Below the pieces are notes generated by a model that worked only from the letters and a program-made list of their open reading frames with translations, ran no database searches and was not told the origin of the DNA. A program made the position numbers and the translations under genes. DNA of 64,000 bases from an uncultured Bacillota bacterium. Its GTDB lineage: Bacteria; Bacillota; Dethiobacteria; DTU022; UBA8154. Every line of letters begins with the position of its first letter. Position 1 is the stretch's first letter. Shown here one piece after another: positions 3,102 through 19,230 of this stretch. The stretch is from the NCBI GenBank assembly GCA_937973635.1, contig CALJJZ010000044.1, positions 72 through 64,071 on the forward strand, written 5' to 3'.

Positions 3102-5075
3102 ATGTTTTTACAACTGCACAATATCCATAAAGCCTACGGCGCCAACCCTGTTTTGCGCGGCGTCTCCCTGCAGCTGCACCGCGGCGAGCGGGCGGGCCTG
3201 ATCGGAGTCAACGGCTCCGGCAAGAGCACGATCCTGAAAATCATCATGGGCGAAGAAACTGCCGATGGGGGGCAGCTCCGCCTCTCCCGGGAGGTTAAGG
3301 TGGGTTACTTGAGCCAGAAACCGGAGTTTACTAGCAAGGAGACGCTGCGCGCTTTTTTGGAGCAGGGGGCGGCGCCGTTACTTAAGCTACAAAAAGAGAT
3401 GGCCGCCCTGGAGCAGGAGATGGCCCGGGTGTCCCGGCAGGAGGGGAAGAATGCACCCCGGCTGGACCCCCTGGTAGAACGTTACGGGATACTGGCACAC
3501 CATTTTGAAGAGCAGGGAGGCTATGACCTGGAGCACCGCCTGCGGGTTGTGGCCAGGGGGCTGGGCTTTGACGAGGCGGACCTCGGCCGTTCCCTCGCCA
3601 CTTTCAGCGGCGGCGAGAAAACGCGGGCCCAGCTCGCAGCGCTGCTCTTGCAGGAACCGGAGCTGCTGCTCCTCGATGAGCCCACCAACAACCTGGATAC
3701 AGAGGCGGTGGAATGGCTGGAGAGCTACCTTTCCGCCTGGCGCGGCGCTCTTTTGGTGGTTTCCCACGACCGTTATTTTCTTGACCGGGTGGCCACTGAA
3801 GTGCTTCTGCTGGAGCAGGGCGTGGTCCGGGCCTACCGGGGGAATTACAGCGCCTTTCAGTCCCAGCGGCGCCTGGAGGAGGCAACTGCCCTGAAGGCAT
3901 ACCGCAAACAGCAGGCAGTCCTGGAAAAAGAGAGGGCTTTTATCCTTAACGCCGCTGCTGATGCCCGCACAAAGCGACAGGCCCGCAGCCGGGAAAAGCG
4001 TCTGGAAAAGCTGGAGCCGCTTCAGGGGGTTACCCGTGAGCGGGAAATTAAGATCAGGTTGGGTTTTGCCGGGCGCAGCGGCAAACTGGTGGTGAGCCTG
4101 GAAAATATCTCCAAAAAATACGGCCCCAGGCAGATTTTTGCCGACGTAAACCTGGAGATTCACTGGGGGGACCGGGTGGCGGTAGTGGGCCCCAACGGTG
4201 CGGGGAAAACCACCCTGCTGCGGGTGATTACAGGGGAAGAAGCCCCTACCACGGGGCGTTTGCGCGTGGGGCCTTCTGTGCGTATGGCCTACTTTGAGCA
4301 GGAACAAAAGGAGCTGGATCCCCACAGCACCCCCCTGGCTGTGATTATGAACGCTTCCTCCATGTCTGCGCCGGAAGCCAGAAATTACCTGGGGAGCTAC
4401 CTTTTTCAGGGGGAAGATGTATTTAAGAAAATCGGGAGCCTGAGCGGTGGCGAACTCAGCCGCCTTGCCCTGGCCAAAATGGGCCTGGTGGAGGGCAATT
4501 TTTTAATCATGGACGAACCTACAAACCACCTCGATTTCCAGGGCGTGGAAGAGCTGGAGACAACGCTGGCCGCTTATCCGGGGACCATACTCCTTGTCTC
4601 CCATGACCGCTATTTTATTTCCCGGACAGCGAACAAGATCCTAGAGCTGCAGGACGGCCGGGCGCGCCTCTTTGGCGGGAGCTACCGGGAGTACCGGGAG
4701 CTCAAAGAGAGGGGAAAGGCCCTCCGCCCCGCTGTTTCCCCTCTGTCGTCGTCCGGTGTGGAGGCGGACCGGGAAAAAGCTGACCGCCTGGCGCAGCGCC
4801 AGGCAGAGCAGGCAAAGCGGGCAGAGCTTATGGCGCAGCGTCGCCGCCGCCGGGAAGCGGAGCGGCAGCTGGCTGCCCTGGAAGAAGAAATCCACGGAAC
4901 GGAAGAGCGTATCGGGCTGCTGGAGCAACAGCTGGCAGATCCGGCCCTTTACAGCTGCTTTGCCCAAGCCCGTCCTGTCATGGACGAATTGCAGGCGCTG
5001 CGCGGGCAGCTGGAGAAGCTCTACAAGCAGTGGGAGGAGACGGCAGCCCTCTTGGAAGAGCTGCCGTCTCTTTAA
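3102..5075 (+). CDS. ABC-F family ATPase (Uup/EttA-like). Two ABC cassettes, no TMD, C-terminal coiled coil.
   Basis: Two Walker A motifs (GVNGSGKST, GPNGAGKTT), two LSGGE signatures, an inter-domain linker, and a Glu/Arg-rich C-terminal coiled coil. Confidence 0.9.
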   Translation: MFLQLHNIHKAYGANPVLRGVSLQLHRGERAGLIGVNGSGKSTILKIIMGEETADGGQLRLSREVKVGYLSQKPEFTSKETLRAFLEQGAAPLLKLQKEMAALEQEMARVSRQEGKNAPRLDPLVERYGILAHHFEEQGGYDLEHRLRVVARGLGFDEADLGRSLATFSGGEKTRAQLAALLLQEPELLLLDEPTNNLDTEAVEWLESYLSAWRGALLVVSHDRYFLDRVATEVLLLEQGVVRAYRGNYSAFQSQRRLEEATALKAYRKQQAVLEKERAFILNAAADARTKRQARSREKRLEKLEPLQGVTREREIKIRLGFAGRSGKLVVSLENISKKYGPRQIFADVNLEIHWGDRVAVVGPNGAGKTTLLRVITGEEAPTTGRLRVGPSVRMAYFEQEQKELDPHSTPLAVIMNASSMSAPEARNYLGSYLFQGEDVFKKIGSLSGGELSRLALAKMGLVEGNFLIMDEPTNHLDFQGVEELETTLAAYPGTILLVSHDRYFISRTANKILELQDGRARLFGGSYREYRELKERGKALRPAVSPLSSSGVEADREKADRLAQRQAEQAKRAELMAQRRRRREAERQLAALEEEIHGTEERIGLLEQQLADPALYSCFAQARPVMDELQALRGQLEKLYKQWEETAALLEELPSL

Positions 5076-5100: not shown

Positions 5101-5787
5101 CTAACGCACGAAAAGGTGGCTGCCGATACGGGCCAGCACCGGCCGGCTGCGTATCCAGGCGTTCCAGGATTTGGCAGGATTGTAAAAGGAGAGTGCTCCT
5201 CCTGTGGGGTCATTGCCCTCAAGGGCTTCCAGAACAGCCCGGCGAGCTTCGTCCCCGGCCGGCCTGTTAATTGTCCCGTTGCGTACGGGACAGTACTGAT
5301 AGCCATAGGACACTTGGTAGATGACTCCGGGGATCGTATTGGGGTAACGGGGGCTCTCCACCCTGTTTAAAACCGTGGCGGCCACAGCCACTTTGCCCGG
5401 GTACGGCTCGCCCCCGGCTTCCGCCTGGACGAGGCGGGCCAGCAGATCGATGTCCTTCGCGCTGAAGCGCGGTGCCGGTGGCGCTGGCGGCGATGTCGGC
5501 ACGGCTGCCTCGGTACCTGCGCCTTCTTCTTTATTTGTCTTCCCTTTTCTTCCTTCTTTTTCTTCTTCTTTTAGTTCTCCTGCTGTTTTTTCCACGGGTA
5601 ACAGCTGGTTTGCAGCAGCTGGTTTTAACAGGGGATCGAGGGCGCTTGCGCTCAACATTACCGCCGCGGCTTCCTTTTTGCCCGGCCCGGAGGCTTCTGC
5701 CACCCGGGCGGAGGTTTCCGCCGATCCGCCTGTGATCAGGAAAATACAGATAGCCATACTTAACAATTTTTGCATCTTTTGTTTCAT
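5101..5787 (-). CDS. SleB-like cell-wall (spore cortex-lytic) hydrolase with signal peptide
   Basis: C-terminal Hydrolase_2 domain (VAATVLNRVESPRYPNTIPGVIYQ...YQYCPVRNG...FYNP). N-terminal signal peptide. RBS GGAGGTGAGGAGG sits before the ATG. Confidence 0.8.
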   Translation of the reverse strand: MKQKMQKLLSMAICIFLITGGSAETSARVAEASGPGKKEAAAVMLSASALDPLLKPAAANQLLPVEKTAGELKEEEKEGRKGKTNKEEGAGTEAAVPTSPPAPPAPRFSAKDIDLLARLVQAEAGGEPYPGKVAVAATVLNRVESPRYPNTIPGVIYQVSYGYQYCPVRNGTINRPAGDEARRAVLEALEGNDPTGGALSFYNPAKSWNAWIRSRPVLARIGSHLFVR

Positions 5788-5794
5788 TTTTCCT

Positions 5795-5920
5795 CCTCAC
5801 CTCCGGAGTTAGCTGTCGGGTTAGGGCGAGGAATGCCCTACCGCCTGTAGGCGGTTACACCCCGGAACATGGTTCCCCCGTACCCTCAAAAAGAGGGATT
5901 CGGCATTGATCGGTTTTCCG
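5795..5920 (-). ncRNA. Cyclic-di-AMP riboswitch (ydaO-yuaA class) in the 5' leader of the SleB-like gene
   Basis: The minus-strand transcript carries the ydaO hallmark segments as I recall them: UGCCGAAUCCC, ACGGGGGAACC, GGGGUGUAACC, and the 3' block AACCCGACAGCUAACUCCGGAGG. That last block runs into the RBS. A TATAAT lies about 10 nt upstream. Cell-wall hydrolases are classic ydaO targets. Confidence 0.5.
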
Positions 5921-7045: not shown

Positions 7046-9499
7046 ATGAAGTCTTTGAAAGCGGTAATTATGGCCGGCGGCGAGGGCGCCAGGCTGCGTC
7101 CCCTGACCTGCGACCGACCAAAACCCATGGTACCCCTGCTCGGGCGTCCGATGATGGAGTACATCCTCAGACTGCTGCTAAAACACTGCCTGCAGGAGAT
7201 GGCCGTAACGCTCCAGTATCTCCCGGAAAAGATCAAAGGTCATTTTGCTGACGGCGAAGATTGGGGTGTCAGCTTGTGCTATTTTTTGGAAAAAGCACCT
7301 CTGGGGACGGCAGGCAGCGTAAAAAATGCTGCCTCCTTCCTTGACCGGACCTTCCTGGTGATCAGCGGCGACTGCCTTACGGACATCGATCTGACAGCGG
7401 CCCTCCGCTTTCACCGGCGCAAAAAAGCCCTGGCCACCATTGTCCTTACACCCAGGGAAGATCCCCTGGAATATGGTATTGTCATTACCGACGCAGAAGG
7501 GAGGATCAACCGTTTTCTGGAGAAGCCCGGCTGGGGCGAGGTTTTCAGCGATACGGTGAATACGGGGATATATATCCTTGAGCCGGAGGTGCTGCGCTAC
7601 ATCCCCGAAGGCGAAAAATTCGATTTCAGCCGCGACCTTTTCCCTCTGCTCCTGCAGGAAAGAAAAGCCCTTTACGGTTGCAGTCTTCCCGGTTACTGGT
7701 GCGACATCGGTAGCCTGGAGCAGTATATCCAGGCCCAGCATGATATGCTTGCCGGCAAAGTAAGCGTGGAGATCCCCGCTGCAGAAACGGAAAAGGGGGT
7801 GTGGCTGAGCCCGGGAGTGGAGCTGGAGGAAGGCTCGCGCCTGCTGCCCCCCGTATTTATAGGCGCCGGCACGCGCATCTCCAGGGGAGCGGTGGTAGGT
7901 GACTATGCCGTTATCGGCGCCCAAAACCATATCGGCCCCGGTGCTGTGGTAAAGAGGGGCATTACCTGGGACGGGGTCAACATTGCCGCCGGGGCAGCCC
8001 TTAAAGGAGGTATCCTAGGGCAGAGGGCACAGCTGGAAGAGCGGTCCGTAGTTTATGAAGACGCCATCCTGGCGGACAAAAGTATCCTCGGAGGGGAAAG
8101 CGTGATCAGACCGGGGGTTAAGGTATGGCCCTACAAGCATCTGGAAAGCGGCATCACGCTGCGCTCCAACCTTGTCTGGGGCAGCAGGGCCTGCCGCTTC
8201 CTCTTTGGCTTTGACGGCGTCAAAGGCAGGCTCAACGGTGAATGCAACGTGGAAGCGGCGGTAAGCCTGGGGGCGGCATTTGGTTCTCTGCTGGGACGGG
8301 GGAAAAGGGCCGTTGTGGGCCATGAAGCGGCGGCAGCCGCCGGTCTTTTGAAAGATGCGGTAAAACTTGGTCTCATATCCACCGGGCTGGAGGTATATGA
8401 ACTGGGGGAGACGACCTGCGCCATCTGCCGCTTTGCCGTGAACCTTTACGGGGCGCAAGGAGGGGTCTACCTCTCGGTGCCGGCAGAGGCGAAAGACTGT
8501 GTCTGCCTGCGTTTTTTCGACGGCGAAGGGATGAACCTCTCCCGCAATGAGGAGCGGAAAGTGGAGCAGCTTTTTTCCCGCGACGATTTTGCCCGGGCAG
8601 CGGCGGACCAGCTGGGGGAGACGGTTCCCGTCAGTGGTCTGACGGATCAATACAGGGAGTACCTTGCGGGGACGTTGAAAGCCCGCCGGATCCAGGAGCG
8701 CAAATACCGGCTTGTACTCAGCTGCCCGGCCGGGCCGGCCGGCAGCATTTTACTGGAACTCCTGGAGGGGCTAGGCTGCTCCCTGCTTTACCTGCCCTTT
8801 CCCCGCTGCCATGCTGTTTTGCCCCGGCATTTTGCCCGGGAAACGGTGCGGGAAACGGTGGAGCGGACAGGGGCGGATATGGGCGCCGTGCTCTCTCCCG
8901 ACGGCGAGCGCCTCTTTCTCAGCACAGCCTGTGGCCGTGTCCTAGAAGAGGAGGAGCTGCAGGCCCTGATTACGCTCCTGCAGCTGCGCTACAGGCAGCT
9001 TGGCACTGTGGCCGTACCTGTAACGGCACCTCGCGTGCACGAAGAGCTGGCGCGCCGTTACCGCGGCCAGGTGCTACGCACCCGCACCTCTCCCCGCCAG
9101 CGCCTGGAAGGGCTGCGGCAGACAGGGCTGCCCTTCCCTGCACAAGGCTTTGACGGCGGCAAGATCCTGCTGGAGCTTCTAGATTTTATGGCCGCCGAAC
9201 AAAAGTCCCTGGAGCAACTGCTGGAAGAGATCCCGCCCTTTTACCTCGAAGAAAGGAGGCTCCCGTGCCCCTGGAACCAGAAGGGCCGGGTAATGCGGCG
9301 CCTGGTTGAAGAAGCGGGCAGTGAAAAGGTGGAACTGCTCGAAGGCTTAAAGGTTTACCGTCCCGGGGGCTGGGCCCTTGTCCTGCCCGACCCGGAGGAG
9401 CCGGCTTACCGCATTATCGGGGAAGGGGACAGCAGGGAAAACGCAGTAGCCTTGGTCGATTTTTACCTGGAACGGGTGCGCCTGCTGCAGCAGGAATAA
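7046..9499 (+). CDS. Sugar-1-phosphate nucleotidyltransferase with left-handed beta-helix, fused to a phosphoglucomutase/phosphomannomutase-like C-terminal domain whose active site is degenerate
   Basis: N-terminus MAGGEGARLRPLTCDRPKPM (NTP_transferase). Hexapeptide repeats follow. The C-terminal PGM/PMM fold is present, but GGIMITASHNP is replaced by GGVYLSVPAEA, and the DGDGDR metal loop reads SPDGER. Confidence 0.85.
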   Translation: MKSLKAVIMAGGEGARLRPLTCDRPKPMVPLLGRPMMEYILRLLLKHCLQEMAVTLQYLPEKIKGHFADGEDWGVSLCYFLEKAPLGTAGSVKNAASFLDRTFLVISGDCLTDIDLTAALRFHRRKKALATIVLTPREDPLEYGIVITDAEGRINRFLEKPGWGEVFSDTVNTGIYILEPEVLRYIPEGEKFDFSRDLFPLLLQERKALYGCSLPGYWCDIGSLEQYIQAQHDMLAGKVSVEIPAAETEKGVWLSPGVELEEGSRLLPPVFIGAGTRISRGAVVGDYAVIGAQNHIGPGAVVKRGITWDGVNIAAGAALKGGILGQRAQLEERSVVYEDAILADKSILGGESVIRPGVKVWPYKHLESGITLRSNLVWGSRACRFLFGFDGVKGRLNGECNVEAAVSLGAAFGSLLGRGKRAVVGHEAAAAAGLLKDAVKLGLISTGLEVYELGETTCAICRFAVNLYGAQGGVYLSVPAEAKDCVCLRFFDGEGMNLSRNEERKVEQLFSRDDFARAAADQLGETVPVSGLTDQYREYLAGTLKARRIQERKYRLVLSCPAGPAGSILLELLEGLGCSLLYLPFPRCHAVLPRHFARETVRETVERTGADMGAVLSPDGERLFLSTACGRVLEEEELQALITLLQLRYRQLGTVAVPVTAPRVHEELARRYRGQVLRTRTSPRQRLEGLRQTGLPFPAQGFDGGKILLELLDFMAAEQKSLEQLLEEIPPFYLEERRLPCPWNQKGRVMRRLVEEAGSEKVELLEGLKVYRPGGWALVLPDPEEPAYRIIGEGDSRENAVALVDFYLERVRLLQQE

Positions 9500-9523
9500 A
9501 AGATTGTTTCCTTAAAATAATCC

Positions 9524-9573
9524 TTGAAACATTTTGCCTTAGATGTTATGATAAATGCAAATTAATTGCATTT
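9524..9573 (+). promoter_or_regulatory. Sigma-A type promoter (TTGAAA-17-TATGAT) directly abutting an 8-5-8 inverted repeat, AAATGCAA-attaa-TTGCATTT (candidate repressor operator)
   Basis: The -35 is at 9524-9529, the -10 at 9547-9552, and the palindrome at 9553-9573, about 28 nt upstream of the ABC ATPase start. Confidence 0.5.
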
Positions 9574-9600
9574 ATTTTTTTAAAAAAACCGGGGGGAAAT

Positions 9601-10248
9601 ATGATTGAGCTTAAAAACTTGAGAAAAAGTTTTGAAGGGGAGCTTCTGCTGGATATCAGGGGTTTTACCTTTCAAAACGGGGTCAGCTATCTCTTTTTTG
9701 GCCCGTCCGGCTGCGGCAAGACCACACTATTAAACATCATTGCCGGCGTGATCCCGGCCGACTCCGGCCAGGTAATTGTTGACGGCTGTGATATAGGGGC
9801 ACTGAGCCCCGTAAAGCGTGATGCATACCGCCTGAGCACCGTAGGGTATGTCTTCCAGGAGTTTTACTTGCTGGAAAAGATGACTGTAGAAGACAATTTA
9901 AGGCTGCTGGAGCTCGAGCTGAAGCGGAAGGTCCCTGTGGACAGGACCCTTGAAGCCCTGGGCCTCGGCCCCAAAAAACATAAAAAGATAACGACCCTCT
10001 CCAGCGGCGAAAAGCAGCGGGTGGCCATTGCCCGGGCCCTAATTAAAGAGCCTGCGGTGCTGCTGGCCGATGAGCCCACGGGCAACCTGAACCCCAGGCT
10101 GGCCGGAGAGATCATGTCCTTGATCGCCGGCTGTGCGAGCAACCTCCATATCCCTGTGCTTGCAGTCTCCCACGATTATGGCATGAAGGGGTATTTCGAC
10201 GTGGCCCTGGAGATCTCTGAGCTGAACGGGGTGAACCTGCCATGCTGA
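9601..10248 (+). CDS. ABC transporter ATP-binding protein
   Basis: Walker A GPSGCGKTT, signature LSSGEKQRVAIARAL, Walker B LLADEPTGNLN. Its stop overlaps the next start. Confidence 0.9.
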   Translation: MIELKNLRKSFEGELLLDIRGFTFQNGVSYLFFGPSGCGKTTLLNIIAGVIPADSGQVIVDGCDIGALSPVKRDAYRLSTVGYVFQEFYLLEKMTVEDNLRLLELELKRKVPVDRTLEALGLGPKKHKKITTLSSGEKQRVAIARALIKEPAVLLADEPTGNLNPRLAGEIMSLIAGCASNLHIPVLAVSHDYGMKGYFDVALEISELNGVNLPC

Positions 10249-11537
10249 AACTGCTGAATTTTGCCCTGAAAAACCTGAGAACAAAACTGACCAGGGCAGT
10301 CCTTGCCTCCCTGGCCATTATCCTGTGCGCTACCATTGCCCTGGTCAGCTATAATACGGCCAAACAGGTACAGGACGGTGTCATCTCCACGGCAGGCTTT
10401 TACGATACCATTGTCGGCCCTGAAGGGAGCCCGCTCCAGCTTGCCCTGGCGACGATGTTTTTTGTGGAAAACCCCCTGGGCACAATCCCTTACGAGCACT
10501 ATGAAAAACTGCGCCACAACCCGGCAGTGCGGGAAATTTACCCCTTTGCCGCCGGTGATTTCTACCGCACCACGCGTATTATCGGGACCGTGCCCGCCTA
10601 TCTGCAGCGCTATGAACTGCAAGAAGGGCGGATCTTTGCCCAGCCTGGTGAAGCCGTCATCGGTTACCAGGTCGCCCGGTCAGGCATTTTGCGCCTTGAT
10701 GATGTCTTTGTGGGCGCCCATGGCTTTGCCGTCAACGGGCATATACACGATGATTTTGAGTACCGTGTGGTGGGCGTGCTGGCTAAAAGCAGGACGGCTG
10801 CGGATAATGTCATCTTTACCCCCATTGAGAGCGTCTGGCTTGTGCATGCTGACCATGACCATGAACATGCTGACCATGACCATGAACATGGGCATGAAGA
10901 TACTCACGACTACGTACACGGCCAGCCGGAAGGGGGCTCCGGCGAGGGCTCCAGCCGGCAAGACGGAGATATGCACGGGCAGGAAGCCGGAGAGCTAAAG
11001 GGGGACCTTGTCTCCATTATGCTCAGGACAGAAAGCCTTGCCGCACACGCACGGCTTGTGGCTGCATACAGGGAGATCCCCGGAGTCCAGGCCATTAATC
11101 CGGCTTCTGTTTTAAGGGAGCTGCTCGTCAACCTTACCCTCGGCCGGGACATTCTGTATGCGCTGGCGGCAATAATCATGTTTATGGCGGCAATAGTCAT
11201 CTATGTTACCACCGCCTCCTTTGTTGAAGACAGCAAGAAAGATCTCTTAATCATGCGCCTGGTGGGCATTAAGCGGAAAACTATCGTCCCCCTCTTTGTC
11301 CTCCAGACTGTTTTCCTTGCCGCTGTAAGTATGGCTGTCTCTTTTTTCTTGAGTTTCCTTGCCCTTTTGCTGATCAACAGGTTTACGGCGGCAAATTTTG
11401 GCCTGGTGATCGACGGTGCAAAACGTTACCCCGCCGAAATGCTGATTTTGCTCGTTATCTTTGTCATTATTGTCGTCTCCTCCCTTGTTTCCATCTTCCC
11501 GGTTTACCGGCATGACCCACTGGAGGGGAGATCATGA
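10242..11537 (+). CDS. FtsX/MacB-like ABC permease with a His-rich extracytoplasmic insert
   Basis: N-terminal TM, large periplasmic domain, and three C-terminal TMs in the FtsX fold. The insert reads HADHDHEHADHDHEHGHEDTHDYVHGQ and is encoded by an exact 21-nt tandem duplication. Confidence 0.8.
   Translation: MLKLLNFALKNLRTKLTRAVLASLAIILCATIALVSYNTAKQVQDGVISTAGFYDTIVGPEGSPLQLALATMFFVENPLGTIPYEHYEKLRHNPAVREIYPFAAGDFYRTTRIIGTVPAYLQRYELQEGRIFAQPGEAVIGYQVARSGILRLDDVFVGAHGFAVNGHIHDDFEYRVVGVLAKSRTAADNVIFTPIESVWLVHADHDHEHADHDHEHGHEDTHDYVHGQPEGGSGEGSSRQDGDMHGQEAGELKGDLVSIMLRTESLAAHARLVAAYREIPGVQAINPASVLRELLVNLTLGRDILYALAAIIMFMAAIVIYVTTASFVEDSKKDLLIMRLVGIKRKTIVPLFVLQTVFLAAVSMAVSFFLSFLALLLINRFTAANFGLVIDGAKRYPAEMLILLVIFVIIVVSSLVSIFPVYRHDPLEGRS
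10848..10889 (+). repeat. Exact 2 x 21-nt tandem duplication (gctgaccatgaccatgaacat) encoding ADHDHEH x2 inside the permease gene
   Basis: Direct reading of the sequence. Confidence 0.9.
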
Positions 11538-12355
11538 AAAAAATAGCCCTAGCCTTTACGGGGCTTATTTTGGCCCTGGTGCTTTTGTGTGCGGGGTGCT
11601 CCCCGGAAAAACAGGCCGGACAGGCCGGGGTGGTGGCGCTCCATTTCCGGGAGCTGATGGACGAGGACAACAACCTTTCCTTACGGGTGCGGGAGCTTGA
11701 CGGGAAAAAAGTCTCCATCACGGGGTTTATGGCCATGCAGTCGCCCCTTGATGGCAGTTTTGTTTACCTGACGAATATGCCCCTTGTAGTCTGCCCGTAC
11801 TGTATTCCCGGCACAAACACGCTCCTGAACGCCATCCCTGCCATAGCCCCTGCCGGCAAGCCGATCAAATATACCGAACAACCGGTAACGGTTATCGGCG
11901 TGCTGGAGATAGGGGAAAAGAAAGATTTTTTTGGCTATACCACGCCGCTGAGGATTAATGTGGAGAGCATAGCAGTGGCCGATGCCGGCAAACTGTCCCC
12001 CTCCCTCAAGGAATACGCCATGCTCGCTTCCGACGGCGTGATCATGGAGGTCCTGCTTCTCCTGGACCAGTTGGTGACCTACACCAGCTACGATTTGTCC
12101 GAGCTTGATCCGGCCATGCTTTACGCTGTTGACCTGGAAAAAATAGACGGGCTGATGGGGAAGGTCAGGGGCTACGGCGTGCCCTCTTACGGGGGCCTCA
12201 TAGATATTTTACAAGGGGCGAGGGAACTGGCCGTGGAGCTCAATCAGCTTATGGAAAGCGGCCGGCAGGAAGAGATGATAAACTTTGCCGCAGAAGGGGC
12301 CTTCCTCTGGCGTGCCTATTTCGCCTGGGCGGACGAAATGGCCACCCTGGACTAA
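11534..12355 (+). CDS. Lipoprotein of unknown function with CPYC motif; third gene of the ABC/FtsX operon
   Basis: Lipobox LLCAGCS after a signal peptide. CPYCIPG motif. The start overlaps the permease stop. Confidence 0.6.
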   Translation: MKKIALAFTGLILALVLLCAGCSPEKQAGQAGVVALHFRELMDEDNNLSLRVRELDGKKVSITGFMAMQSPLDGSFVYLTNMPLVVCPYCIPGTNTLLNAIPAIAPAGKPIKYTEQPVTVIGVLEIGEKKDFFGYTTPLRINVESIAVADAGKLSPSLKEYAMLASDGVIMEVLLLLDQLVTYTSYDLSELDPAMLYAVDLEKIDGLMGKVRGYGVPSYGGLIDILQGARELAVELNQLMESGRQEEMINFAAEGAFLWRAYFAWADEMATLD

Positions 12356-12372
12356 AAAATTCTGAAAAAATA

Positions 12373-12392
12373 GGGACACAATGAAAATTATT
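12373..12392 (+). repeat. REP-like repeat copy 1 (GGGACACAATGAAAATTATT)
   Basis: Identical core to the copy at 12443-12462. Confidence 0.7.
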
Positions 12393-12437
12393 AAAAACAT
12401 TATCAAGTTTTTTGCAAAGCGGACATAAAAATTTTAA

Positions 12438-12462
12438 ATTTCGGGACACAATGAAAATTATT
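12438..12462 (+). repeat. REP-like repeat copy 2 (AATTTCGGGACACAATGAAAATTATT)
   Basis: Direct sequence identity. Confidence 0.7.
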
Positions 12463-12495: not shown

Positions 12496-13164
12496 ATGCC
12501 AAGGATAGCCAGAGTTGTTGTTCCGGGAATCCCCCATCACATCACACAGCGTGGAAACCGGCGTCTCCCCACTTTTTTCTGCGACAATGATTACAAGCGT
12601 TATCTGCAGATTATGGCGGAGCAATGCAAAAAATGGGGTGTTAAGATCTGGGCATACTGTCTTATGCCCAATCATGTGCATCTCATTGCTGTGCCTGCTA
12701 CAGAAGAAGCCCTGGCCGCTGCAGTCGGCGAAGCGCACCGCCGTTATACCTGGCTGATAAATAACCGGGAAAAATGGAGCGGCTTTTTATGGCAGGGTCG
12801 TTTTGCCTCATGCCCGCTGGATGAAGCTCATTTATACCTTGCAGCCCGTTACATTGAACTTAATCCTGTCCGTGCTGGCCTGGTAAAACATGCCCGGGAT
12901 TATCGCTGGAGCAGTGCGGCGGCACATTTTGCCGGGCGTGATGATATCCTGGTGGAGGTGGCGCCTCTAATAAACATGTTTGGGGATTGGGAGAAATACC
13001 TAGGGATTGATATTGCCGAGGAAGAATCAAAAAAGATTAAACGCCATGTGCAAAGCGGTGTCCCTTTGGGAGACGAAAAATTTGTATCTGACCTTGAGGA
13101 AAGGTTTGGCCTGAAATTCAGGCCGCAAAGGAGAGGCCCCAAAGGTTCCTGGAAACACAAATAA
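12496..13164 (+). CDS. REP-associated tyrosine transposase RayT (IS200/IS605-like Y1 HuH transposase, COG1943)
   Basis: HHITQRGNRR near the N-terminus, HuH motif PNHVHLIA, and catalytic Tyr region RYIELNPVRAGLV...YRWSS. The 222-aa length fits RAYT. Confidence 0.8.
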   Translation: MPRIARVVVPGIPHHITQRGNRRLPTFFCDNDYKRYLQIMAEQCKKWGVKIWAYCLMPNHVHLIAVPATEEALAAAVGEAHRRYTWLINNREKWSGFLWQGRFASCPLDEAHLYLAARYIELNPVRAGLVKHARDYRWSSAAAHFAGRDDILVEVAPLINMFGDWEKYLGIDIAEEESKKIKRHVQSGVPLGDEKFVSDLEERFGLKFRPQRRGPKGSWKHK

Positions 13165-19154: not shown

Positions 19155-19230
19155 TGGTGGACCCGAGGGGGCTCGAACCCCTGGCCTCCAGAGTGCGATT
19201 CTGGCGCTCTCCCAGCTGAGCTACGGGCCC
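19155..19230 (-). tRNA. tRNA-Ala (anticodon CGC)
   Basis: Reverse complement folds as a cloverleaf: GGGCCCGTAGCTCAGCTGGGAGAGCGCCAGAATCGCACTCTGGAGGCCAGGGGTTCGAGCCCCTCGGGTCCACCA. It has the G3:U70 Ala identity pair, GGTTCGA T-loop and an encoded CCA. Confidence 0.85.

Follow-up and report, generated by a model that had tools for sequence, protein, structure and literature searches.

ZrgABCDE of Vibrio and PA4063-PA4066 of Pseudomonas aeruginosa are the closest described relatives of the operon discussed here, and the family to which they belong (ZrgBC/PA4064-65) is widespread, forms part of the zinc-starvation response of pathogens and has a disputed mechanism. The Vibrio system includes a permease (ZrgB), an ATPase (ZrgC), a DUF3299 protein (ZrgE) and a DUF2796 protein (ZrgA) (PMC9820375, PMC9817125), and zrgABCDE is Zur-regulated, induced 75-200-fold by zinc limitation and required for zinc-limited growth when ZnuABC is absent (PMC9817125, PMC9820375). 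In P. aeruginosa, PA4063-PA4066 is repressed by zinc via Zur and aids the growth of zinc-uptake mutants (PMC11481552); PA4064 and PA4065 have been modelled together as a MacB made of two polypeptides, and the DUF3299 protein PA4066 has a solved structure, PDB 4hsp (PMC11481552, PMC8561739). In this report we focused on a three-gene operon at positions 9524-12355 of a 64,000-nucleotide (nt) stretch of DNA from an uncultured Bacillota bacterium (contig CALJJZ010000044.1), hereafter the window, which encodes an ATP-binding cassette (ABC) ATPase, a permease and a lipoprotein. The operon is a Firmicute member of this large known family and not a new kind of system. We give a probability of roughly 60% to the reading that it encodes a type VII ABC system repressed by Zur and induced by zinc starvation, as the Firmicute version of ZrgC-ZrgB-ZrgE/PA4064-PA4065-PA4066, in which zinc would be the ligand and transport would favour its supply to the cell.

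The first finding of this study is that, on the evidence of profiles, folds and gene context, all three window proteins are homologous to ZrgC-ZrgB-ZrgE/PA4064-PA4066. An earlier description of the window made from its letters—the sequence-only reading—had proposed an operon of ATPase, FtsX/MacB-like permease and lipoprotein genes, and this arrangement was borne out by the open reading frames (ORFs) and by Pfam matches to ABC_tran and FtsX. The three genes, all on the forward strand, encode a ZrgC/PA4064-like ATPase of 215 residues (9601-10248; ABC_tran, E 6e-32), a type VII (MacB/FtsX-type) permease of 431 residues (10242-11537; FtsX) and a lipoprotein of 273 residues (11534-12355) whose ORF has no Pfam or NCBIfam match. 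A ribosome-binding site, GGGGGGA (9591-9597, forward strand), read from the sequence, lies 4 nt 5' of the first ATG, and the ATPase and permease ORFs share 7 nt and the permease and lipoprotein ORFs 4 nt, which suggests translational coupling. The ATPase has a Walker A motif (GPSGCGKT), a signature (LSSGEKQR), a Walker B motif (LLADEP) and an H-loop (SHD), and its top NCBIfam matches are FtsE/LolD/MacB-type ATPases, every one below its cut-off.

The permease model (AlphaFold2 [AF2], mean predicted local distance difference test [pLDDT] 82.7) has four transmembrane (TM) helices and a β-rich extracytoplasmic domain, approximately residues 52-286, between TM1 and TM2. Its top Foldseek matches are MacB, LolCDE, pneumococcal Spr0694-0695, HrtBA and YbbAP, with BceAB also matched (E 5e-16 to 1e-10), which places it among the type VII ABC permeases. 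At the sequence level, the permease family profile is matched by solved structures in TM2-TM4 only, and the extracytoplasmic domain is, as judged from these comparisons, specific to this permease subfamily. A database search with the permease returned 110 relatives, and its homologues also carry MacB_PCD; an exhaustive profile search at E <= 1e-30 gave 1,737 cluster representatives of the subfamily, the best 150 of which are all full-length with E < 1e-104. A scan of a genome collection with the single permease sequence gave one weak irrelevant match. The window system thus shares with MacB, LolCDE, HrtBA and FtsEX its permease fold and topology and an ATPase of the FtsE/LolD type, but differs from them in an extracytoplasmic domain with three invariant histidines and an aspartate (His3/Asp), in a His-rich loop, and in zinc-related regulation and partners, all of which are described below.

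Kinship with PA4065 was assessed on a contig, L135, fetched by way of P. aeruginosa-type PA4066 proteins that had been found in a search with a 4hsp fragment. The gene order of this contig is ZrgA, ABC_tran, a fragmented FtsX, DUF3299 and OmpW, and the window ATPase is 33% identical to its PA4064 region. The permease family profile matches its PA4065 region in five colinear segments (profile positions 29-67, 68-101, 98-140, 141-187 and 252-362) totalling about 117 bits, in a contig with long-read frameshifts and with weak direct pairwise similarity to PA4065. These segments include DLIVGA..GS, GDS.R..R..GT, AHG and KHDD, the last two holding the equivalents of H160 and H169 of the window permease. 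On this profile evidence the kinship with PA4065 is real but distant. The window operon therefore resembles PA4063-PA4066 in having a separate ATPase, a four-TM permease with a large external domain and a DUF3299-type OB-fold protein, and it resembles PA4065 in its family signature residues, the AHG and KHDD histidines among them, although sequence identity is low and the kinship is seen at the profile level only. Compared by published description, it also has the ATPase, MacB-like permease and DUF3299 protein of Vibrio ZrgABCDE.

Unlike PA4063-PA4066, the window has no PA4063/ZrgA (DUF2796) gene: there is no fourth operon gene, and tblastn with PA4063-like fragments over the whole window gave 0 matches. 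ZrgD (DUF2607) of Vibrio is absent as well, together with ZrgA, which is a His-rich soluble zinc-binding protein. Most homologous loci examined are also without ZrgA, which therefore appears to lie outside the conserved core, and the locus narrows the question of mechanism to a core of ATPase, permease and DUF3299 protein. Among distant homologues, the gene order is ABC-FtsX-DUF3299-FUR in L009; ABC-FtsX-146-residue protein-FUR, with a divergent MerC-like gene, in L010 (Sinomicrobium soli); and cobW-DksA-ABC-FtsX, then further on DUF3299 and a TonB receptor, in L011. As far as gene context can tell, these neighbours are Zur regulon signatures. The sequence-only claim of a metal-related system is accordingly upheld by homology to the Zur-regulated ZrgB/PA4065 module. 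ZnuABC resembles the window system in being ABC-type and Zur-regulated and in having a His-rich flexible loop near a metal site (in ZnuA), but its membrane fold is wholly different and the window holds no ZnuA-type binding protein; none of the three window proteins has a ZnuA or ZnuB match in Pfam, and the permease fold is that of MacB. ZnuA genes occur elsewhere behind the palindrome described below, and ZnuABC and the window system are therefore better seen as co-members of a regulon than as homologues.

The assignment of the third protein required more distant comparisons. Its signal peptide ends at G21-C22, with the codon of the lipobox Cys22 at 11597-11599, and the CPYC motif that had been read from the sequence alone (C87-C90; 11792-11803, forward strand) is confirmed as a feature of its family, since G21, C22, C87 and C90 are all invariant among 14 database homologues. 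The AF2 model (pLDDT 79.9) has an OB-type β barrel at approximately residues 33-150, in which the CPYC motif sits in a flexible loop of low confidence (pLDDT <50 at residues 86-98), and a helical bundle at approximately residues 156-271 that is limited to a small Firmicute clade of 14 proteins. Sequence searches of Pfam (DUF3299 included), NCBIfam and the PDB gave no match for the lipoprotein, and in Foldseek its model matches 4hsp (PA4066) with E 4.8e-4 and a TM-score of 0.50 on the target, at rank 16 among generic OB folds. A profile was also built from seven small partner proteins, encoded downstream of distant permease homologues. By hhalign it matches the lipoprotein family at a probability of 98.3% (E 2e-14); the alignment spans the core LDGK.V.ltGFM...F.yLt..P...CpyC..g....ytEqPVtv.G.Le. 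and places CPYC opposite the C-x-F-C of the DUF3299-like partners. Three of the seven partners pass Pfam DUF3299, and the sole PDB match of the partner profile is 4hsp (E 0.0027), in which the motif is C-I-H. The alignment of CPYC with C-x-F-C and C-I-H marks it as the Cys/His loop of the family, and the N-terminal OB domain of the lipoprotein is DUF3299-like. We considered a stand-alone thioredoxin-like redox motif for CPYC and rejected it in favour of the C-x-x-C/H loop that is conserved in the DUF3299 OB domain. The window protein differs from PA4066 in being a lipoprotein, in having CPYC in place of C-I-H and in an additional helical domain, some 115 residues long, at its C-terminus.

The second finding is that the operon lies directly behind a putative Zur-type operator. 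The predicted promoter is of the sigma-70 type (9524-9552, forward strand), with 10 of 12 consensus bases: a -35 element TTGAAA (9524-9529), a 17-nt spacer, an extended -10 TG at 9544-9545 and a -10 element TATGAT (9547-9552). An 8-5-8 inverted repeat had been proposed to abut this -10 element; the adjacency is real, but the repeat is longer, a perfect 10-5-10 palindrome, ATAAATGCAA-ATTAA-TTGCATTTAT (9551-9575), with arms that are 100% complementary. It takes in the final two positions of the -10 hexamer as well as the site at which transcription is expected to start, a placement that implies repression by occlusion. Within the window alone the element is unremarkable, as the 8-5-8 pattern with <=3 mismatches had at least one match in 43 of 100 shuffles and a lone match is not significant. 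Its significance therefore rests on comparison with other genomes. An Rfam scan of the leader (9400-9700) found no riboswitch, and a literature search on the operator sequence returned nothing relevant.

We therefore scanned metagenome loci for ATAAATGCAA-N5-TTGCATTTAT, with all 20 arm bases fixed, clustered the ORFs that start just past either side of each match and assigned them by Pfam. The exact palindrome is present in at least 120 loci, and the recurrent families beside it are cobW/COG0523, the Fur family, ZnuA, ZIP, TonB-dependent receptors and MerC-like membrane proteins, along with two unannotated lipoprotein families. A cobW, FUR, ZnuA, ZIP, TonB-receptor or similar gene starts <=400 bp from the palindrome in 53/120 of the loci listed, a lower bound obtained with one representative per family as tblastn probe, and Fur-family genes do so in no fewer than 8 loci. 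The exact palindrome of L051, L070, L082 and L097, four of these loci, lies between a divergent cobW and an ATPase gene followed by a permease homologue, 28-34% identical to the window permease, and a DUF3299-like gene. Among Firmicute orthologues, one (L132) has an operon that begins with a FUR gene, in the order FUR-ABC-FtsX-lipoprotein, and a box with one mismatch, AAATGCAACTTACTTGCAATT, directly 3' of a promoter-like TTGACG-17-TATAAT; another (L133) has a box with two mismatches right after a promoter-like TTGACA and a -10-like element; and L010 has two boxes with two mismatches each. These zinc-gene associations, and the recurrence of the palindrome before homologous operons, identify it as a Zur/zinc-type operator, to which Zur would bind. 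The sequence-only proposal of a metal-responsive repressor box is in this way narrowed to the zinc type, with exact copies before the four operons named above. In a third Firmicute orthologue (L134), a FUR gene lies upstream and the boxes are of the classical TGATAATnnTTATCA type; at positions 3185-3290 of that locus, classical Fur-type TGATAATGCTTATCA and TGATAATTGTTATCA boxes replace those of the TGCAA-N5-TTGCA type, from which it follows that operator type varies inside one operon family.

Two other explanations of the palindrome bear on these results. The first, which the comparative data make highly improbable, is a response to nickel, cobalt or copper under a Nur-, NikR-, CsoR- or ArsR-type regulator. 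The core TGCAA-N5-TTGCA presumably resembles the Streptomyces Nur box, which we take to be TTGCAA-N5-TTGCAA before nickel-uptake or sodF genes; His-rich segments bind nickel and cobalt too, and one orthologue (L005, see below) has an adjoining ArsR-type gene. The neighbours of the palindrome, however, are COG0523, ZnuA, ZIP and zur and not nik, cbi, ure or cop genes, those relatives that have been characterised are under Zur and zinc control (PMC9817125, PMC11481552), and for the NikR/CsoR-type regulators put forward earlier we found nothing that favours nickel, cobalt or copper. The second explanation, that the palindrome is merely a weak terminator of the upstream gene and the ABC system a peptide or bacteriocin exporter with an incidental low-complexity His-rich loop, is barely conceivable. 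Its RNA hairpin (-9.7 kcal/mol) is followed by seven U residues, and the top NCBIfam match of the ATPase is a bacteriocin-export subfamily, far under the cut-off; but the fold z-score is only -1.6, the same palindrome recurs beside zinc genes in unrelated genomes, and the invariant histidines and DUF3299 partner link the system to the Zur regulon. We have therefore set the terminator aside, as the hairpin is weak and the comparative data favour an operator; at most, the hairpin may also provide leaky termination for the gene that precedes it (7046-9499).

If this assignment is right, ATAAATGCAA-N5-TTGCATTTAT would be a portable Zur-box that marks zinc regulons in metagenomes, and it flags several unannotated recurrent neighbours. 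In 11 loci (L029, L053, L060, L068, L075, L076, L081, L085, L109, L124 and L131) a lipoprotein of about 181 residues with no Pfam match starts <=~40 bp from the palindrome and adjoins a TonB-dependent receptor, and it appears to belong to the zinc-starvation regulon as a recurrent member that has so far gone undescribed. Directly behind the palindrome in L065, L073 and L108 is encoded another lipoprotein, of about 396 residues, with an HDDHVH motif and no Pfam match, which is a further candidate zinc-regulon protein. Small Cys-rich MerC-family membrane proteins are found behind the Zur-type palindrome in L028, L033, L037, L048 and L069, and the MerC-family gene of L010 (3860-4279) is divergent from the homologous ABC operon, which suggests that the MerC-like protein serves zinc, not mercury, handling.

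The third finding is a set of conserved residues in the extracytoplasmic domain of the permease. In a first alignment of 24 sequences, 25-71% identical, three histidines are invariant: H160 (codon 10719-10721), H169 (10746-10748) and H202 (10845-10847), all on the forward strand (10719-10847). In a diverse set of 148 sequences drawn from the best 150 representatives, which was also used for the loop counts below, H160, H169, H202 and D106 are present in 148/148 and D188 in 147/148. We propose these five residues as a candidate metal site, in which they would cluster in three dimensions. The three histidines and one aspartate that are invariant family-wide are obvious targets for mutagenesis, and although the locus is ordinary for its family, this invariant site and the minimal three-gene architecture make the mechanism easier to test. 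The searchable literature on the family makes no mention of the invariant histidines or of a His-rich loop in the permease, and the ZrgBC/PA4064-PA4066 system goes unmentioned in a large review of metallostasis; these features may be a modest new observation, on the family and not on this locus alone.

Beside the invariant H160, H169, H202 and D106 lies the His-rich loop, a disordered His/Asp/Glu-rich segment (residues 203-250; 10848-10991, forward strand) between the Sabre-type and Porter-type subdomains, with pLDDT <50 at residues 206-250. It contains an exact, in-frame 21-nt tandem duplication (10845-10890, forward strand) that encodes two ADHDHEH units and yields HADHDHEHADHDHEHGHEDTHD. 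Tandem Repeats Finder gives 2.2 copies of this seven-codon unit with 100% matches (score 92), in agreement with the duplication that had been noticed by inspection. The same inspection had called a His-rich metal-binding loop unusual for the family, which it is not. In the 24-sequence alignment an H/D/E-rich insert of very variable length occupies the same position in distant homologues too, and 107/148 representatives have >=5 His in the loop and 14/148 have <=1; the characterised members of the family are, moreover, the Zur-regulated ZrgB and PA4065. Internal repetition is apparent by eye in many of these loops, which suggests that the window duplication is one case of a recurrent process.

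Length variability, which the duplication had been taken to foreshadow, was found between relatives but not within a population. Loop length ranges from 3 to 165 residues (median 40) in the representatives, and the closest relative (L008, 80.7% nucleotide identity) has a loop of another length without the 21-nt duplication. The sole independent assembly of the window locus (L004) matches it at 100% identity across 3,026 nt and showed no variation in the copy number of the 21-nt repeat. L008 comes from the same ENA sample, and a frameshift in its permease gene, at the conserved ESVW just 5' of the loop (positions 640-700), leaves two ORFs in place of one; either the gene is a pseudogene or the assembly is in error beside a repetitive CAC/CAT/GAC tract.

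The loop also sets the window permease, which has one of 46 residues, apart from PA4065, which has none. In L135 (2300-4961), PA4065 keeps the AHG and KHDD histidines without a His-rich loop, and the adjacent PA4063/ZrgA is His-rich; where ZrgA is lacking (L009, L010, the L051 type and the Firmicute clade), it is the loop of the permease that is rich in His. ZrgA and the loop may be complementary, a hypothesis with very few loci behind it.

Taken together, these observations are consistent with the following sequence of events. When zinc is sufficient, a Fur-family Zur, encoded outside the window, would bind the 10-5-10 palindrome and block transcription; once zinc becomes scarce, all three genes would be expressed with translational coupling. 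The disordered His/Asp/Glu-rich loop of the permease could then act as a low-affinity antenna that gathers zinc, the membrane-tethered OB-fold DUF3299-like lipoprotein and its CPYC loop could assist in metal capture or hand-over, and the invariant His3/Asp extracytoplasmic site could be the specific metal site. ATP hydrolysis by the ATPase would drive a conformational change in the extracytoplasmic domain, with a net effect of zinc supply to the cell, either by import or by a mechanotransmission that falls short of import. The mechanism of the family is disputed: work in Vibrio favours import and work in Pseudomonas favours chelate export. A more specific version of the proposal, which is possible but which we hold to be doubtful, is that the His3/Asp cluster binds zinc directly—which would make the whole subfamily the first of the type VII ABC transporters with a bare metal ion as substrate, either imported or handed on by mechanotransmission—and that the repeat-expanding loop replaces ZrgA/PA4063. 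In that event, the three-gene Firmicute operon of ATPase, permease and DUF3299 protein would be the minimal functional core.

Several observations weigh against this proposal. To our knowledge, solved MacB-type transporters are exporters or mechanotransmitters without a transmembrane channel, and we know of no type VII ABC system that works as an importer. We found no conserved His, Asp, Cys or charged residue inside the TM helices in this clade, and at position 355 in TM3 (Q355; 11302-11304), where 86% of the 148 representatives have Glu, the window permease has Gln. For the homologous pump of P. aeruginosa, export of pyochelin-cobalt and not import of zinc has been proposed (PMC11481552). 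On the regulatory side, no Fur-family gene, and hence no Zur gene, was found within the window, and two orthologues that are 65-67% identical (L005 and L006) have no clear box: neither has the exact core, and with mismatches allowed L006 has only a version with three mismatches and L005 none. The expected conservation of the palindrome in orthologous promoters thus holds for L132 and L133, with one to two mismatches, but fails for L005 and L006. L005 has a divergent ArsR-type gene instead of a box, so that regulation may differ in this subclade. Finally, short or His-poor loops occur in the same gene context (L133, PA4065), which makes the loop look accessory and not essential to the core mechanism, and we regard the His-rich loop as what looks like an accessory family trait. 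Two further observations concern the same subjects. At a second position in TM3, 372, 54% of the family have His and the window permease has Phe, and 355 and 372 are the sole conserved polar positions in the TM helices with a possible bearing on a translocation path; and L005 (4270-4360) and L006 (4290-4355) have in common a leader of about 45 nt, GAGGAAATGC..TCCT.TAAA.AATATT, just 5' of the ribosome-binding site.

Two alternatives to zinc supply through the permease were considered. The first, which we consider unlikely, is a Zur-regulated exporter that during zinc starvation would expel, for example, metallophores, metal-chelate complexes or a competing metal taken up by mistake, such as cobalt, with the His-rich loop and His site binding the outgoing metal complex or sensing external metal. 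Such an exporter would fit the fold of MacB, LolCDE and HrtBA, all exporters or extractors, the absence of conserved metal-ligand residues from the TM helices in this clade, and the build-up of cobalt and pyochelin in PA4065 mutants (PMC11481552). It fits less well with the genetics of V. cholerae, which favour zinc acquisition (PMC9820375), and with the distribution of the permease family, found across Firmicutes, Bacteroidota, Proteobacteria and Planctomycetota, often with only cobW or zur nearby and no metallophore biosynthesis genes. This wide spread, and the usual lack of such genes, argue against a species-specific organic substrate—which would also be unlikely to account for an invariant His3/Asp site—and for a metal ion as the ligand. 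There is, in addition, no gene for a MacA-type adaptor or an outer-membrane partner in or adjoining the operon.

The second alternative is ATP-driven handling of extracytoplasmic zinc in which nothing crosses the membrane. Here, mechanotransmission would remove zinc from ligands in the environment or transfer it to the lipoprotein, to a different importer or to zinc enzymes that are secreted. FtsEX, LolCDE, BceAB and YbbAP are type VII ABC systems that work by mechanotransmission, and it is to mechanotransmitting systems of this type that the permease fold is matched by Foldseek; the family-specific conservation lies entirely in the extracytoplasmic domain, and a dedicated OB-fold partner is always beside the pump. 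The operon, however, encodes no partner importer, and this alternative, which we judge quite unlikely, differs from the zinc-supply reading in the last step only.

Some features of the window outside the operon deserve mention. Between the stop codon of the lipoprotein gene and a gene for an IS200-like Y1 transposase (12496-13164) there is a 27-nt direct repeat with the core GGGACACAATGAAAATTATT (12366-12392 and 12436-12462; 89% identity, at a distance of 70 nt), which may be a REP-like (repetitive extragenic palindrome) element tied to a transposase of the RAYT (REP-associated tyrosine transposase) type. Rfam also identifies a c-di-AMP riboswitch (ydaO/yuaA leader; 5783-5915, reverse strand; 84 bits) and a tRNA gene (19158-19230, reverse strand), both unrelated to the operon.

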